From the NCBI GenBank assembly GCA_005239865.1, contig SBBC01000033.1, forward strand, positions 1 to 57,777: DNA of 57,777 nucleotides. The letters run 5' to 3'. Positions 39,476-42,843 of this stretch are shown here, piece after piece. The number at the start of each line of letters is the position of its first letter. The first letter of the stretch is position 1. This DNA is from Candidatus Microgenomatus auricola. GTDB taxonomy: Bacteria > Patescibacteriota > Patescibacteriia > SBBC01. The position numbers and the translations under genes are program-made. The notes beneath the pieces are model-generated. The model made no database searches. It was not told where the DNA came from and saw nothing but the letters and a program-made list of their open reading frames with translations.

Positions 39476-39514
39476 GCGCGCGGGTGTCGTATTACGGCTA
39501 TTATGTCACCCTTC

Positions 39515-39720
39515 TCCCGTAAAACGAGGAGCGTGAGCGACGAAGTTTTACTGATCCCGTACGACGAGCTCTTGTGACAATCCTGGCGCAGGTATCGTAT
39601 AATGGTAATACCTCAGCTTTCCAAGCTGATGCCGGGGGTTCGATTCCCCCTACCTGCTCCAAGATTGTCACGGGATCCTCGCAACCAGACGGGCTCGTTC
39701 GTAGCCTCGTCGTTGCGGGA
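39515..39720. mobile_element. 206-nt nested inverted-repeat element (TCCCG...CGGGA) carrying tRNA-Gly(TCC), inserted in the anticodon of the outer tRNA
   Basis: Concentric arms tcccgtacgacgag 39555-68 / ctcgtcgttgcggga 39706-20 and tcttgtgacaatc 39570-82 / gattgtcacggga 39663-75, plus the self-contained unit tcccgtaaaac...gttttac at 39515-51. Confidence 0.65.
39588..39661 (+). tRNA. tRNA-Gly(TCC), intact, CCA encoded
   Basis: Acceptor GCAGGTA/TACCTGC, anticodon arm TCAGC-TTTCCAA-GCTGA, T-arm GGGGG-TTCGATT-CCCCC. Confidence 0.97.
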
Positions 39721-39779
39721 CAAGGGGTAGAAGCCCCGCCGAATGGCGGGTCACCCGCTCCAGTGAGTTGCCCACCGTG

Positions 39780-41396
39780 ATGAACCAACGCTGGCAGCTC
39801 GTTGGTGTGTTTGCGGTCGTGGTGTTGGTTGCGCTCACGGCGTATTTCTGGAATCTCGGAGTGTCATCGATTGCCAACGCCGACGAGGGCGTGCACGCAC
39901 TGGTCACGCGAGAGCTCCGCGAATCAGGCGACTGGCTGACCTTGCACATCCGCGGGGTCGAGTACTTTCGGAAACCGCCGCTGTCATTCTGGATTCGCGG
40001 CGTCACGCAGTTGGCGCTGGGTGAAAATGAGTTCGCCACCCGGCTGCCGTCGGCGCTGGCCGGCGCGGGGACGACGTTGCTGATCGCGTGGTGGGCCTGG
40101 CTCTGGACGCGGCGCTGGCCGGCGGCGCTCGTCGCTGGGGTCATGTTTCCGCTTTTACCAGTCACGTTCACCCACACCTTTCGCACCGGCGAAACGGACG
40201 GCCTCCTGATATTTTTCCTGACGCTGGCCGCGTGGCTGTTCTGGCGAAGCGTCAAAACACCGTGGCTCGTAGTGCCTGCGGCCGGCGTGATCGGCTTGGC
40301 CTTCATGACGAAATCAGTGGCCGCGGGCGTCGTGCCGATTGGGTTTATGCTGACGTTGTGGCTGCAACGAAAATGGCCATACACTTGGAAGCACGTGGTG
40401 CTGACAGTTGTCCTGTTCCTGGCGGTGATTTTGCCGTGGCACGTTTACGAATATGCGAAGCACGGACAGAAGTTTTGGAACGAGTACGTCGGCTATCATA
40501 TTCTCCAGCGCGTCGAGGAACGGTTGCACGTCACGCCGAAAACCCACGGACCGTTCTGGTACCCGAGCGCGCTCGAACGCGGCATGTTCCCGTGGTCGTG
40601 GTTGGTCGTGCCGGCCTTGGCGCTGGCAATCGTCAGGGTGAGAAAACGCGAGGATGATGCATTCGTCCAGACTTTTCTCTTGGCTTGGGGCGTCGGCACG
40701 GTCGTCCTGTTCTCGCTGGCGGCCACGAAGCTGGCTTGGTACATCGCCCCGGCCTATCCGGCCCTGACCTTGCTCTTGGCGCGATTCCTGACACAACCGT
40801 TCTGGTCGCTGCCGCGCTGGCTGCTTGTGTTGAGCGTCGCGGCGGCAGTCGGTTACCTCATGCGGGTCACTCAACAATTCCAGACCGGTGCCAGCAAGTA
40901 CCTGTCGTTCGACTTCCTGCCCGCCTGGGTGAGCGTCAGCGCGATGGTGGTTGTGGCGGCGGGGGTCCTGACGATGGCCTATCGGAAATCAACGGCCGCG
41001 GGTCAACGGACGCTCAAAGTCATGGCCTTGCTCCTCGTGCTGCACATGGCGCTGGTCAGCGCCGCGCTGTTCTCGCGGAACGTCCGGAGAATCTACGACA
41101 GCCCGTTCCGCGTATTTCGCAACGAGGCCGTGGCGCGCGATCCGAAGGCGAACGTCTACATCTACGACATCGGTTATTATACCAGTCCGCTGGCCCACCT
41201 CTACCTGGTCGGTCCGCGGCAACAGCGGATACTCACGCCGCTGCGGGAACAGCCCGACAAACTGCAAGAAATCTTGGCCAGCCGAGCCGGCGCTTTCGTC
41301 ATTTTTGAGAAGACCAGGGAACATGAGCTAGAGGGACTGGCCGATTTGGAAAAAATCAGTGAATTTGGATCGCTCGCGCTGTACCGAGTTCGATAA
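39780..41396 (+). CDS. ArnT-family (GT83) glycosyltransferase
   Basis: ADEGVHA, KPPL.FW, RLPSA, GLAFMTK, HGPFWY, KLAWYIAPAYPA. Confidence 0.88.
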   Translation: MNQRWQLVGVFAVVVLVALTAYFWNLGVSSIANADEGVHALVTRELRESGDWLTLHIRGVEYFRKPPLSFWIRGVTQLALGENEFATRLPSALAGAGTTLLIAWWAWLWTRRWPAALVAGVMFPLLPVTFTHTFRTGETDGLLIFFLTLAAWLFWRSVKTPWLVVPAAGVIGLAFMTKSVAAGVVPIGFMLTLWLQRKWPYTWKHVVLTVVLFLAVILPWHVYEYAKHGQKFWNEYVGYHILQRVEERLHVTPKTHGPFWYPSALERGMFPWSWLVVPALALAIVRVRKREDDAFVQTFLLAWGVGTVVLFSLAATKLAWYIAPAYPALTLLLARFLTQPFWSLPRWLLVLSVAAAVGYLMRVTQQFQTGASKYLSFDFLPAWVSVSAMVVVAAGVLTMAYRKSTAAGQRTLKVMALLLVLHMALVSAALFSRNVRRIYDSPFRVFRNEAVARDPKANVYIYDIGYYTSPLAHLYLVGPRQQRILTPLREQPDKLQEILASRAGAFVIFEKTREHELEGLADLEKISEFGSLALYRVR

Positions 41397-41444
41397 TTTC
41401 GCCAACTGTATCCAGAATTACATTAACTGCAGAGGCCAAAGGGG

Positions 41445-41473
41445 TTGACAAAACTATCACACCGACGTACCAT
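41445..41473 (+). promoter_or_regulatory. Sigma70 promoter for the 3D-domain gene
   Basis: TTGACA-N17-TACCAT. Confidence 0.7.
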
Positions 41474-41566
41474 ACGTAAAGTTTTCTAAAACCTGCGGGT
41501 CATCCCGCGAGTTTTTGAACCCGGATTTTTCATGCCCAATCCGGCACTTACCAGTAGCGCAACTCC

Positions 41567-42082
41567 ATGATTCGACTACGACGATTTGTCCGACGAAACA
41601 GAAGGAAGTTGTACATTTACATAGCGCTTCTGTCCCTAGCTAATTTTTTAGTCCCGCACCCAGCTTCGGCCAAATCATTGCTGTCAGATGCGGAGACGCC
41701 AGTCGCGGAGGTAGTACCGGAACAGTCAGTGCCGACCATGAGCTGGCGTGAGGATCGACCGCTGTTCCCGGTGCCAGCCAACCTACCGGTGCAACGTACG
41801 GTTTGGGTTACGGCCACCGCCTACACCCCATCAGTTGATGAAACTGACAGCGATCCGCGGACCACGGCTTCCGGTGCAAAAGTAGATGATGGCGTGATCG
41901 CCTTTAACGGCCTATCGTTCGGCACGAAAGTGCGCTTACCCGATCAGTACGGCGATAAAATATTTATCGTCCTCGATCGAATGAGCCCGCGTTACGGTAA
42001 TCGGTACATCGATATCTGGATGCCGACCAAGCAAGAAGCGAAGCAATGGGGCGTGAAGTCGGTCCGGATGGAAATACTTTAA
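41567..42082 (+). CDS. Secreted 3D-domain (MltA-like) protein
   Basis: Signal peptide, VTATAYT...TDSDP..TASG, FGTKV, DRM, IDIWM, AKQWG. Confidence 0.9.
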   Translation: MIRLRRFVRRNRRKLYIYIALLSLANFLVPHPASAKSLLSDAETPVAEVVPEQSVPTMSWREDRPLFPVPANLPVQRTVWVTATAYTPSVDETDSDPRTTASGAKVDDGVIAFNGLSFGTKVRLPDQYGDKIFIVLDRMSPRYGNRYIDIWMPTKQEAKQWGVKSVRMEIL

Positions 42083-42106
42083 CATCCTTACCAAGGATTA
42101 CCGACC

Positions 42107-42135
42107 TTGATCGTGTCGGAGATTTTTGGTATGAT
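42107..42135 (+). promoter_or_regulatory. Sigma70 promoter upstream of tRNA-Cys
   Basis: TTGATC-N17-TATGAT with TG extension. Confidence 0.6.
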
Positions 42136-42161
42136 GGCGGGGCTTCATCACCGAGTCAATC

Positions 42162-42236
42162 GGCCTGGTAGCCAAGTGGTAAGGCAAGGGTCTGCAAAAC
42201 CCTTATTCAGGGGTTCGAATCCCCTCCAGGCCTCCA
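42162..42236 (+). tRNA. tRNA-Cys(GCA), CCA encoded
   Basis: Acceptor GGCCTGG/CCAGGCC, anticodon arm AGGGT-CTGCAAA-ACCCT, T-arm AGGGG-TTCGAAT-CCCCT. Confidence 0.97.
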
Positions 42237-42251
42237 ACAGAAATGAGCGGC

Positions 42252-42284
42252 CTGGTGCGGGGCGAATTCCCCTCGTGGCCTCCA
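42252..42284 (+). pseudogene. Relic: element right arm plus the 3' end of a second tRNA-Cys
   Basis: CTGGTGCGGGG followed by CGAATTCCCCTCGTGGCCTCCA (half T-loop, T-stem, a different acceptor 3' strand, U discriminator, CCA). Confidence 0.55.
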
Positions 42285-42288
42285 TCGC

Positions 42289-42612
42289 ATGACTGTGATT
42301 CGGTTCATCCAACATCATTCCGGAATAGCATTTATTTTTCTCTATATCCTGCTAGGTTTCGGATTCGCCATCGTCGGCGAAATCTTGCACCCAGTTCACG
42401 ATATATGTAATCTATGTTGGCCAGGAGTAGTTGTATGGCTTCCGACAGCAATCATCTTTTGGCCACTCATGACACTTTTTAGCATCACTTCTGGTCATGG
42501 AAAATTGATGCTCGAGGGAACTACGTACGCGCTGATCGCGTCCTCACTTTTCTTCATTGTCGCGTTCATCGTGAGGGAACACAACAAAAAAGTATCTGGT
42601 ACGCGGGTGTAG
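42289..42612 (+). CDS. Hypothetical 3-TM membrane protein
   Basis: Hydrophobic 107 aa ORF; its stop codon lies inside the 5' end of the outer tRNA-Gly(GCC). Confidence 0.6.
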   Translation: MTVIRFIQHHSGIAFIFLYILLGFGFAIVGEILHPVHDICNLCWPGVVVWLPTAIIFWPLMTLFSITSGHGKLMLEGTTYALIASSLFFIVAFIVREHNKKVSGTRV

Positions 42613-42650
42613 TTCAGTGGTAGAACGTCTCCTTGCCAAGGAGAAGGCCG

Positions 42651-42792
42651 TCCCGCACCACTTGCCAAATAATTGTGATTTCTGCGCGAGAGTAGTTCAG
42701 TGGTAGAACGCTTCCTTGCCAAGGAAGAGGTCGGGGGTTCGAGTCCCCTCTCTCGCTCCAAGTAAAGTAATTTCTACTCAAGTGGTGCGGGA
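42651..42792. mobile_element. Inverted-repeat element carrying tRNA-Gly(GCC), in place of the T-arm of the outer tRNA
   Basis: Perfect 14-bp IR TCCCGCACCACTTG (42651-64) / CAAGTGGTGCGGGA (42779-92). Confidence 0.75.
42686..42760 (+). tRNA. tRNA-Gly(GCC), intact, CCA encoded
   Basis: Acceptor GCGAGAG/CTCTCGC, anticodon arm CTTCC-TTGCCAA-GGAAG, T-loop TTCGAGT. Confidence 0.97.
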
Positions 42793-42810
42793 TCACCCGC
42801 TCCAGGACTT

Positions 42811-42843
42811 TTCCGTAACATATTGAATGGTACGGGATCACCC
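42811..42843. repeat. Degenerate empty copy of the TCCCG...CGGGA palindrome
   Basis: TTCCGTAACAT-attga-ATGGTACGGGA followed by TCACCC, repeating the CGGGATCACCC junction at 42788-98. Confidence 0.55.

Follow-up and report, generated by a model that had tools for sequence, protein, structure and literature searches.

Repetitive extragenic palindromic (REP) sequences and their doublets, the REPINs, which belong to the systems of REP-associated tyrosine transposases (RAYTs), are palindromes without a protein of their own, in which inverted doublets form a hairpin around a spacer and a tag lies on one side. Elements of the IS200/IS605 type transpose as single strands, insert 3' of a fixed tetra- or pentanucleotide and hold the guide in their left end, and integrative elements that target tRNA genes restore the 3' end of the tRNA from attP. 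The palindromic elements of Rickettsia and the intervening sequences of rRNA genes bring no replacement gene and are either retained in the product or excised with no ligation afterwards, and in archaea of the Thermoproteales the transposition of introns occurs. Here we describe a family of short DNA cassettes with inverted ends that lie within tRNA genes and themselves carry a complete tRNA gene, in most cases of the same specificity. The starting point is contig SBBC01000033.1 of Candidatus Microgenomatus auricola, a stretch of 57,777 nt that we call the window (G and C numbers denote genomes and contigs; the source genome is G000 and the window is its contig C50).

Set against the REP/REPIN and RAYT literature, for which parts of PMC3733652 and PMC8049555 were used, the cassettes share short palindromes without a protein, inverted doublets, a one-sided tag, no visible target-site duplication and the presence of RAYT-like genes, and it is this group that they resemble most closely. 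In contrast to REPs and REPINs, however, the spacer is a complete tRNA gene, predicted to be functional, and the stem is continuous with the acceptor stem; the cassettes lie inside tRNA and RNase P RNA genes and not between genes, and their copies number tens rather than hundreds. With IS200/IS605 and the palindrome-associated transposable elements (PATEs) they have in common hairpin ends, no target duplication and an insertion that fits folded single-stranded DNA, but we found no conserved tetra- or pentanucleotide target (junctions follow TTTG, TTGA, CT, CTC, GAG and others), no general guide to the target loop and no TnpB, and the ends of a cassette are inverted copies of each other. As for the tRNA-targeting elements with a tyrosine integrase, landing in an essential tRNA gene is possible since the element supplies what is destroyed, yet the cassette supplies a whole tRNA, splits the old gene, has no integrase and nests repeatedly. 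The Rickettsia palindromes and rRNA intervening sequences likewise sit inside functional genes, for which three hairpins in the RNase P RNA offer a parallel here.

Archaeal disrupted tRNA genes also have inserts in the D, anticodon, variable and T loops, several per gene, and tRNA fragments beside a second gene copy. Mobile DNA has been proposed as a cause: for one archaeon, the part of Sugahara et al. (2012; PMC3293823) considered here puts forward disruption of tRNA genes by an integrating element. In contrast to archaeal tRNA introns, the host described here is a bacterium (its RNase P RNA is of the bacterial class A) without a match to EndA, the inserts hold a complete cognate tRNA, and most interrupted copies look dead. 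A literature search, with subscription journals mostly outside its scope, found no account of bacterial tRNA-in-tRNA genes or of REP-like elements that carry a tRNA.

Results

At two loci of the window an intact tRNA-Gly gene is enclosed by the two parts of another tRNA-Gly gene, TCC inside TCC at one and GCC inside GCC at the other, with inner and outer genes in the same orientation at both (Table 1). This layout had been noticed in the letters of the window alone, and it is borne out by ARAGORN, by Rfam, by the folds and by comparison with G002, which has uninterrupted tRNA-Gly(TCC) and tRNA-Cys genes. Equally confirmed are the different acceptor stems of inner and outer genes and the TCCCG(C/T)...(G/A)CGGGA ends of the inserts, and since a 5' and a 3' half flank a complete gene, the inserts of the window do not correspond to the usual attL/attR of an integrase. 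At tRNA-Cys, where the original prediction had placed a relic of the same layout, the 3' side alone is left, and this 3' end is of the type found in the uninterrupted tRNA-Cys of G002.

The Gly-TCC insert comprises 206 nt and consists of three hairpin pieces around the intact gene, in which a perfect 9-bp helix of leader and trailer directly abuts the tRNA ends. The inner gene differs from the tRNA of G002 mainly in one compensatory acceptor pair. The outer 5' part was not detected by Rfam in a scan of 39000-43300, but it aligns to the 5' half of the uninterrupted G002 gene with a score above all of 2000 shuffles. In the fold the outer acceptor halves GCGGGTG and CACCCGC pair (39480-39514 with 39751-39757; z -6.8), and the outer anticodon reads TCC only when the insert is set as 39515-39720. 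The T arm of this outer gene is replaced by a 17-nt mini-hairpin (CCCGCCGAATGGCGGG, 39734-39750), which also takes the place of a T arm in G001 and is present on contig C13 of G000.

The Gly-GCC insert is shorter (142 nt). Its outer 5' part agrees at 46 of 48 positions with a tRNA-Gly(GCC) that a co-occurring organism has in uninterrupted form on one of its contigs, with an ordinary T arm at the position of the insert; compared with this empty allele, the outer gene lacks the T arm and the insert replaces the T-arm stretch ...GCGGTTCGAGTCCGC... The minimum free energy fold of 42603-42805 is an outer cloverleaf in which a 15-bp helix bearing the inner cloverleaf stands in for the T arm (z -4.6; 0/200 shuffles as stable). 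A paralogue of the inner, GCGAGAG-type allele serves as an outer gene on contig C52. A scan for promoters and terminators over 39300-42950 gave nothing beyond shuffles.

Table 1. Features of the nested tRNA loci in the window (positions in the 57,777-nt stretch)
Feature	Position	Strand	Evidence
Outer tRNA-Gly(TCC), 5' part: acceptor 5' strand, D arm, anticodon stem 5' strand and loop to ..CTTC	39480-39514	+	
Cargo-less hairpin, starts TCCCGT, first piece of composite insert	39515-39554	.	Sequence and helix in fold
Cassette left arm and leader, TCCCGTAC..GTGACAATC..TGGC	39555-39587	.	
Intact inner tRNA-Gly(TCC)	39588-39661	+	ARAGORN; RF00005 65.7 bits
Cassette trailer and right arm, ..GATTGTCACGGGA	39662-39675	.	
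Further hairpin piece, end ..GCGGGA, closing composite insert	39676-39720	.	
Outer tRNA-Gly(TCC), 3' part: CAA and anticodon stem 3' strand, acceptor 3' strand and TCCA	39721-39762	+	
Intact tRNA-Cys(GCA), GGCCTGG-type allele	42162-42236	+	ARAGORN; RF00005 70.5 bits
Relic: right-arm-like GGTGCGGGG fused to older tRNA-Cys T-arm/acceptor 3' end (CGTGGCC-TCCA)	42249-42284	+	
Outer tRNA-Gly(GCC), 5' part, through variable region	42603-42650	+	RF00005 43.7 bits, E 3.6e-7
Cassette left arm and leader, TCCCGCACCACTTG...	42651-42685	.	14-bp perfect inverted repeat with 42779-42792
Intact inner tRNA-Gly(GCC), GCGAGAG-type allele	42686-42760	+	ARAGORN; RF00005 73.2 bits
Cassette trailer and right arm, ...CAAGTGGTGCGGGA	42761-42792	.	
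Outer tRNA-Gly(GCC), acceptor 3' strand and TCCA	42793-42804	+	Pairs with 42603-42609 in fold
Second relic: right arm GGTACGGGA and degenerate Gly-GCC acceptor 3' strand, older layer	42829-42845	+	

The nested tRNA genes are not confined to the window, and the phenomenon is far larger in scale than first noted. The source genome, which derives from groundwater metagenomes, comprises 1.0 Mb in 58 contigs with 57% GC and is 99% complete; all 200 genomes of our sample of the phylum are similarly small (0.4-2.1 Mb), which together with the groundwater origin makes it likely that the host belongs to the small-genome candidate phyla. Of the genomes compared, six are members of the family and about twenty of the order. 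When every tRNA was compared with G000 by BLAST, pieces of tRNA appeared around many other tRNA genes. Counting colinear chains of such pieces at a score of at least 24, we found them at 18 of 40 tRNA loci in G000 (11 nested on both sides, 7 downstream only) and at 22 of 43 in G005 (16 nested, 4 upstream, 2 downstream), against none of 200 random control sites. A gapped alignment to a tRNA of the same isoacceptor scored higher than every one of 120 random controls at 45 of 83 loci (G000 20/40, G005 25/43), and in antisense orientation at four, weakly. About half of the tRNA loci of G000 thus show outer remnants of the same isoacceptor. With any tRNA allowed as reference, the best match was the inner gene's own isoacceptor at 30 of the 40 loci scoring above 25; five of the other ten matched the same amino acid with a different anticodon (one a near tie), and the remaining five are remnants of a neighbouring tRNA or a tRNA missed by ARAGORN. 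At tRNA-Phe of contig C17, 44 nt of 5' sequence are repeated upstream at 100% identity and the 3' end is repeated downstream. Further nested or remnant examples in G000 are Thr-TGT, Trp and Pro-CGG on C4, Gln on C57, Leu-CAG on C53, Arg-TCT on C58, Arg-CCG on C5 and Arg-TCG on C9. A scan for acceptor-stem pairing around every tRNA pointed to several loci but was rejected as non-discriminating (57 pairs against 41 in the reversed control).

Some observations concern the tRNA inventory of G000 more generally. Contig C33 holds two near-identical, heavily interrupted copies of tRNA-Lys (1418-1650 and 5186-5410), one with a CTT anticodon and both without cargo tRNA, and an intact tRNA-Lys(CTT) is absent from the assembly. 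On C58, a tRNA-like gene at 501-571 (Rfam 47 bits, not called by ARAGORN) resembles tRNA-His of G005 over 40 nt and adjoins the nested tRNA-Arg(TCT). Many contigs start or end at tRNA genes (e.g. C49 9410-9468, C1, C5, C22, C35, C46, C58), and tRNA-Ala(TGC) is cut by the end of C49. The absence of Asp-GTC, Gln-TTG and other isoacceptors from the assembly is probably due to such contig ends; no interrupted copy was found for the missing isoacceptors of G000 (Asp-GTC and others). Since the end of a contig demonstrably cuts tRNA-Ala(TGC), the missing isoacceptors are no argument for splicing.

The inserts have ends of two classes, class A with TCCCG(C/T)...(G/A)CGGGA and class B with CCCCGNACC...GGTNCGGGG. 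Class A begins with T and ends with A, and class B is often tagged on one side, by CAGG after or CCTG before. The inverted ends form perfect stems, 9-18 bp long, that enclose spacers of 3-190 nt. Most inserts measure tens to about 220 nt (those of the window 70-130 nt without the tRNA), and cargo-less hairpins of both classes interrupt outer genes as well, with up to six inserts in one gene. Leader and trailer form helices of at least 8 bp at 32 of 82 tRNAs, against 8 of 82 with a shuffled trailer. At many loci the trailer begins to pair at the base right behind the gene, and the leader closes with TGG(N), which faces (N)CCA, so that the cassette stem continues into the acceptor stem. The leader-trailer duplexes show no strand asymmetry (36 sense against 35 antisense), as expected for DNA palindromes, although this is a weak test because the 45-nt windows are permissive (shuffled median -19.6 kcal/mol).

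Arms of the type CCCG(C/T)AC...GT(G/A)CGGG at a spacing of 70-130 nt occur seven times in G000, against once in the reversed control, and 4-10 times in five of the six family members (once in G004, which is 80% complete). The same arm sequence carries at least ten isoacceptors across the order, as well as AT-rich cargo other than tRNA. Within 350 nt of a tRNA the arm motif was found in 37 of 139 cases, a neighbourhood that makes up 2.6% of the genome. By position, 70 insert junctions fall in loops and 35 in stems, many of them inside the anticodon, with positions reliable only at the high-scoring loci. The cleanest junctions, e.g. TTTTG|TCCCGC..CGGGA|TAAAC, show no target-site duplication, and we therefore rejected a miniature inverted-repeat transposable element (MITE) of the DDE type in spite of the inverted ends. 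A guide in which the leader is complementary to the anticodon loop of the target was likewise rejected as a general rule, because an 8-nt complement exists only in the Thr-TGT cassette (2/83 against 8/649 controls). Nor is the arm motif an uptake signal (CCCCGCAC occurs 30 times per strand, about the expectation from base composition), and a dif-like site formed by the palindromic joint of two arms was discarded as well (CGGGATCCCG occurs once).

Hairpins of the same type are also found in other stable RNAs. The RNase P RNA gene of G000 (C46:17700-18815, about 241-960, minus strand) is far longer than its Rfam match (464 nt aligned), and the start reported for it comes about 160 nt downstream of the conserved GAGGAAAGUCC block, because the gene is split by a 72-nt hairpin (CCCCGCACC...GGTGCGGGG). 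The P16/17-like and P18-like positions are each occupied by another hairpin of this type, so that the gene holds three in all, each peripheral. At the tmRNA, a CCCCGCACC hairpin with a 14-bp stem sits directly at the 5' end (C28 7316-7346).

Empty outer alleles, which the original prediction proposed to look for in relatives, exist for tRNA-Cys, Val-GAC, Thr-TGT and Gly-GCC. The tRNA-Cys allele that is uninterrupted in G002 is an interrupted outer gene in G005 and G006, where it holds four inserts, one of them with a different intact tRNA-Cys. The intact Val-GAC of G000 corresponds to outer copies in several layers in G005, which enclose a quite different Val-GAC gene. At Thr-TGT, the same cassette occupies the same place in the anticodon (TTTTG|...|TAAA) in G000, G005 and G014, a third layer lies inside in G001, G004 and G006, and the outer allele of G000 is uninterrupted in G004 (as the innermost gene), G038 and G040. 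The outer Gly-GCC allele of the window is in turn the cargo between the arms in G016. Independent assemblies with the same layout are G001, G004, G005 (4 contigs), G006, G014 and G175.

Beyond single loci, we compared the Thr-Tyr-Thr-Trp cluster across 30 genomes and found remnants at tRNA sites of the family (17/19), of the order (14/34) and of the class (7/24) at a threshold of 26; sites less than 150 nt from the end of a locus were dropped, and a remnant between two tRNAs may count twice. Families f1 and f3 and part of f2 are enriched in exact arm pairs spaced 70-130 nt apart. Across the phylum the arms are patchy: such pairs are present in 10 of 200 further genomes of the sample, against 4 in the reversed control, with tRNA cargo visible in two, and a nested Ile-TAT was verified in one genome of a distant family. 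In loci from metagenomes and viruses, 146 exact arm matches were found in 144 loci, most of them expected by chance. Six of the 146 hold a tRNA, all on metagenome contigs and at least five nested, in DNA of 40-48% GC; of the 24 exact matches to the arm pattern on viral contigs, none holds a tRNA.

The state of the outer genes is heterogeneous. The innermost copy is always intact, whereas after computational removal of the inserts only 18 of 45 outer genes were recognized by ARAGORN as tRNAs, 15 of them with the inner gene's anticodon, and 27 were not. Several outer genes lack the segment from D stem to anticodon or the T arm. Such a range from fresh to decayed is expected for genes that became redundant at various times. 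In G000, G005 and G014 the Thr-TGT outers show compensatory changes in all stems, while by eye the leader and trailer of the cassette differ by only 1-2 bases per arm; in G014 the outer anticodon is TAT.

Discussion

We regard it as probable, if by no means certain, that the nested genes reflect non-autonomous, palindromic cassettes of REP/REPIN-like nature, which act at the DNA level and replace the tRNA gene that they break by their own cargo tRNA. Inverted ends, cargo-less relatives, cargo other than tRNA, no apparent coding capacity and empty sites together point to a non-autonomous family of palindromic DNA elements, and the fact that most outer genes are decayed makes a cassette family at the DNA level the best reading. 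The original prediction had already suggested a palindromic family that delivers a cognate replacement tRNA, and this fits the comparative data with their empty sites, layers, varied cargo and decayed outer genes. Mobility of the cassettes is likewise suggested by the comparison of genomes. They would be moved in trans, probably on single-stranded or cruciform DNA, and would land preferentially in the loops of stable-RNA genes. A preference for loops in highly transcribed genes that form a cloverleaf would fit an enzyme acting on folded single strands. An insertion into a single-copy tRNA gene would survive only if the cassette brings a working tRNA of the same specificity, whereupon the interrupted outer gene would decay. 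The new inner gene would then be open to further hits, leading to two or three nested layers and to a steady turnover of tRNA alleles, which may also pass between genomes. The anticodon match can be explained by selection, with rescue as its putative cause, since among insertions into single-copy tRNA genes only cassettes that replace the function survive.

Several findings weigh against this explanation. The anticodon match, originally seen at the two tRNA-Gly loci, does recur at other loci as far as the isoacceptor is concerned, but it is not absolute: on contig C52 a Gly-CCC gene lies inside a Gly-GCC-like outer gene, a clear exception, which nevertheless fits selection because Gly-GCC function is available elsewhere in G000. 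At many junctions the insertion is not clean, with 11-14 nt of target sequence (the segment from D stem to anticodon or the T arm) being replaced, and identical replacement junctions recur in distant or unrelated genomes. The conserved cassette in the diverged Thr-TGT outers implies either repeated insertion at the same anticodon position or continued selection. In the case of tRNA-Phe on C17, inner and outer genes are identical at 74 of 75 positions, so that the cargo appears to be a local copy, which simple import does not explain. Moreover, the 15 outer genes that are intact and keep the inner anticodon after splicing in silico do not look decayed, although the splice points were set by the alignment itself, which biases this number. 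Among contigs from the source sample no insert polymorphism is seen, in a type of data that drops rare variants. Finally, the tags of the cassettes (CCTG/CAGG) are not those of canonical REPs, given as GTAG/CGTC in the part of PMC3733652 used here.

The search for a mobilising enzyme has a similarly mixed outcome. Hairpins are enriched near tRNAs and three RAYT-like HUH proteins are encoded in G000, but the RAYT-like genes do not track the arms. The RAYT-like open reading frame (ORF) on C25 scores 70.6 bits against NF047646, below the cut-off of 80, and, in contrast to RAYT systems, its flanks hold no CCCG hairpins. PF01797 is present in 22 of 41 relatives independently of the arms (there is no match in G008, with 5 arm pairs, or in G010, with 7), and a link between RAYT presence and arm count was dropped, as there was no clean correlation across the 41 genomes. 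A search for TnpB gave no match. These results, too, count against a REP/REPIN-like mode of movement. Only two tyrosine recombinase matches were found in G000, both similar to XerA or integron integrases and neither inside an insert. One of them (stretch C38:5856-8300, 1465-2286, minus strand) lies 235 nt from tRNA-Met with hairpins in between, and the other (C58 1-132) is separated by about 110 nt from the nested tRNA-Arg(TCT). Candidates for the enzyme are the RAYT-like HUH proteins and the XerA-like recombinases, and nothing ties the RAYT-like proteins to the hairpins. As a separate observation, G005 (C2:389443-389769) and G006 (C42:2911-3228) carry an IS200/RAYT-like HUH gene between tRNA-Gly(TCC) and the glycosyltransferase gene. 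This site is the orthologous place of 39480-39770 in the window; it is AT-rich and has no CCCG hairpins.

Part of these difficulties would be removed if the cargo itself directed the cassette to its target. In such a scheme, the cassette would home specifically into the host's existing gene for its tRNA, entering at a fixed point of a loop through recognition guided by homology or structure, and would act as a self-propagating replacement drive between bacteria with small genomes. We consider this a serious alternative, albeit a rather unlikely one. It would explain why one Thr-TGT cassette is found at an identical anticodon position in three different resident alleles, why the same junction exists in genomes of 42% and 57% GC, and why an allele can be the outer gene in one genome and cargo in another. 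The conservation at Thr-TGT, the recurring junctions and the tRNA-Phe identity on C17 keep alive both this homing and an excision and ligation of some outer genes at the RNA level.

The latter would mean that hairpin-bounded inserts and cargo tRNA are cut from a precursor and the outer halves are ligated, so that one transcript yields two tRNAs. The inserts lie mostly in loops and often at or next to the anticodon, with several exact insertions (Thr-TGT, Ser-GCT, Phe and Tyr), a third of the spliced outer genes (15/45) are tRNAs with the inner anticodon, and the outers of G000, G005 and G014 keep their four stems through compensatory differences. The genome also encodes an RtcB ligase (576 bits), and the three hairpins in the essential, single-copy RNase P RNA imply that hairpins of this type are at least tolerated in a functional RNA. 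Nevertheless, splicing is improbable as a general explanation. EndA (PF01974) has no match in this 99% complete genome and RtcB is widespread among bacteria, with matches in 10 of 14 control genomes. Of the spliced outer genes, 27 are not tRNAs; many outers are missing 11-14 nt of an essential stem, a T arm or a whole half, and in G014 the anticodon of the outer gene is changed. Splicing would also be redundant, as every interrupted gene with cargo encloses an intact gene of the same specificity. The helices lack a strand asymmetry, and the Rfam scan of 39000-43300 down to E 10 detected no intron, self-cleaving ribozyme or group I family, on which grounds a group I intron, as known from bacterial tRNA genes, was rejected as well.

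Equally improbable is an origin without a dedicated cassette, either as scars of integrases (attL/attR with the element deleted) or through allelic replacement of whole loci via conserved flanks. Repeats of the 3' end only, located after the gene, do exist at tRNA-Asn on C48 of G000 (37 nt, 10 nt downstream) and at Gly-TCC in G002 and G006, the XerA-like genes adjoin tRNA-Met (C38) and the nested Arg-TCT (C58), tRNA alleles clearly move between genomes, and the archaeal model as outlined in PMC3293823 also invokes an integrating element. However, recombination of a circle leads to a complete gene plus a 3' fragment and not to halves around a complete gene. The inserts are mostly tens to about 220 nt long with shared inverted ends, the same ends are found on cargo-less hairpins and on cargo other than tRNA, a single outer gene can hold up to six separate inserts, and the whole genome has only the two tyrosine recombinase matches mentioned above.

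Still less probable is a role of hairpins and outer halves as scaffolds for processing or stability selected by the host (e.g. stems of the RNase III type), with the outer fold framing the inner tRNA. At many tRNAs the helices of leader and trailer do prolong the acceptor stem and engage the CCA end in pairing, the Thr-TGT leader and trailer are conserved across families with one covarying pair, and similar hairpins abut the tmRNA and sit in the RNase P RNA. A CCA end paired with a 5' leader is expected to hinder bacterial RNase P, though, and the outer genes range from pristine to fragments and differ between close relatives. Uninterrupted alleles work without hairpins or halves in relatives, and roughly half of the tRNAs of G000 and G005 have no remnant. 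An assembly artefact, i.e. a chimeric join of tRNA strain variants as considered at the outset, is practically negligible despite the many contigs that break at tRNA genes and the Logan contigs that branch inside tRNAs, because Logan contigs made by a second assembler from the same sample, and thus not independent of it, bridge every junction of both window loci, and because the layout exists in at least six other assemblies, including the four-contig G005, and in unrelated metagenome contigs.

If the cassettes indeed replace the genes that they break, this would be an undescribed route by which selfish DNA colonises single-copy essential genes of minimal genomes, namely by bringing a spare. 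The tRNA sets of these bacteria would then not be stably inherited but overwritten repeatedly by alleles circulating between lineages, with a bearing on tRNA-based phylogeny and on the question why tRNA sequences diverge. Annotation is affected as well, since the pseudo-halves present at half of these tRNA loci mislead gene finders and cause breaks in assemblies. The system may also represent a bacterial counterpart to the disrupted tRNA genes of archaea, in which a mobile-DNA origin of the interruption is testable with many datable events. Should outer genes be spliced after all, bacteria would have their first case of tRNA splicing that depends on proteins, and a homing to the cognate gene, if true, would amount to a natural gene-replacement system with programmable targets.

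In the window, the genes between the loci lie outside the nested features and encode a glycosyltransferase of the PMT_2/GT87 type, a weak match to a 3D-domain protein and a hydrophobic protein of 107 aa without a Pfam family. The last of these ORFs (42289-42612, plus strand) is located between the tRNA-Cys relic and the outer tRNA-Gly(GCC), and its stop overlaps the first bases of the latter. Mechanically called ORFs also overlap both inserts. Apart from the cassettes, G000 contains a second family of palindromic repeats of about 75-100 nt with the ends CCCCGTTAGAG...CTCTAACGGGG in about 22 copies (e.g. C12 257-358, C13 11214-11289, C15 8875-8948), none of them near a tRNA, which looks like an independent MITE- or REPIN-like family. 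In addition, an identical, perfect palindrome of 36 nt (CCCCGTAGCTG...) is present at C14 6052-6087 and C21 5777-5812, and one of the two copies directly follows a fragment of a Y1-transposase-like ORF at the end of a contig.

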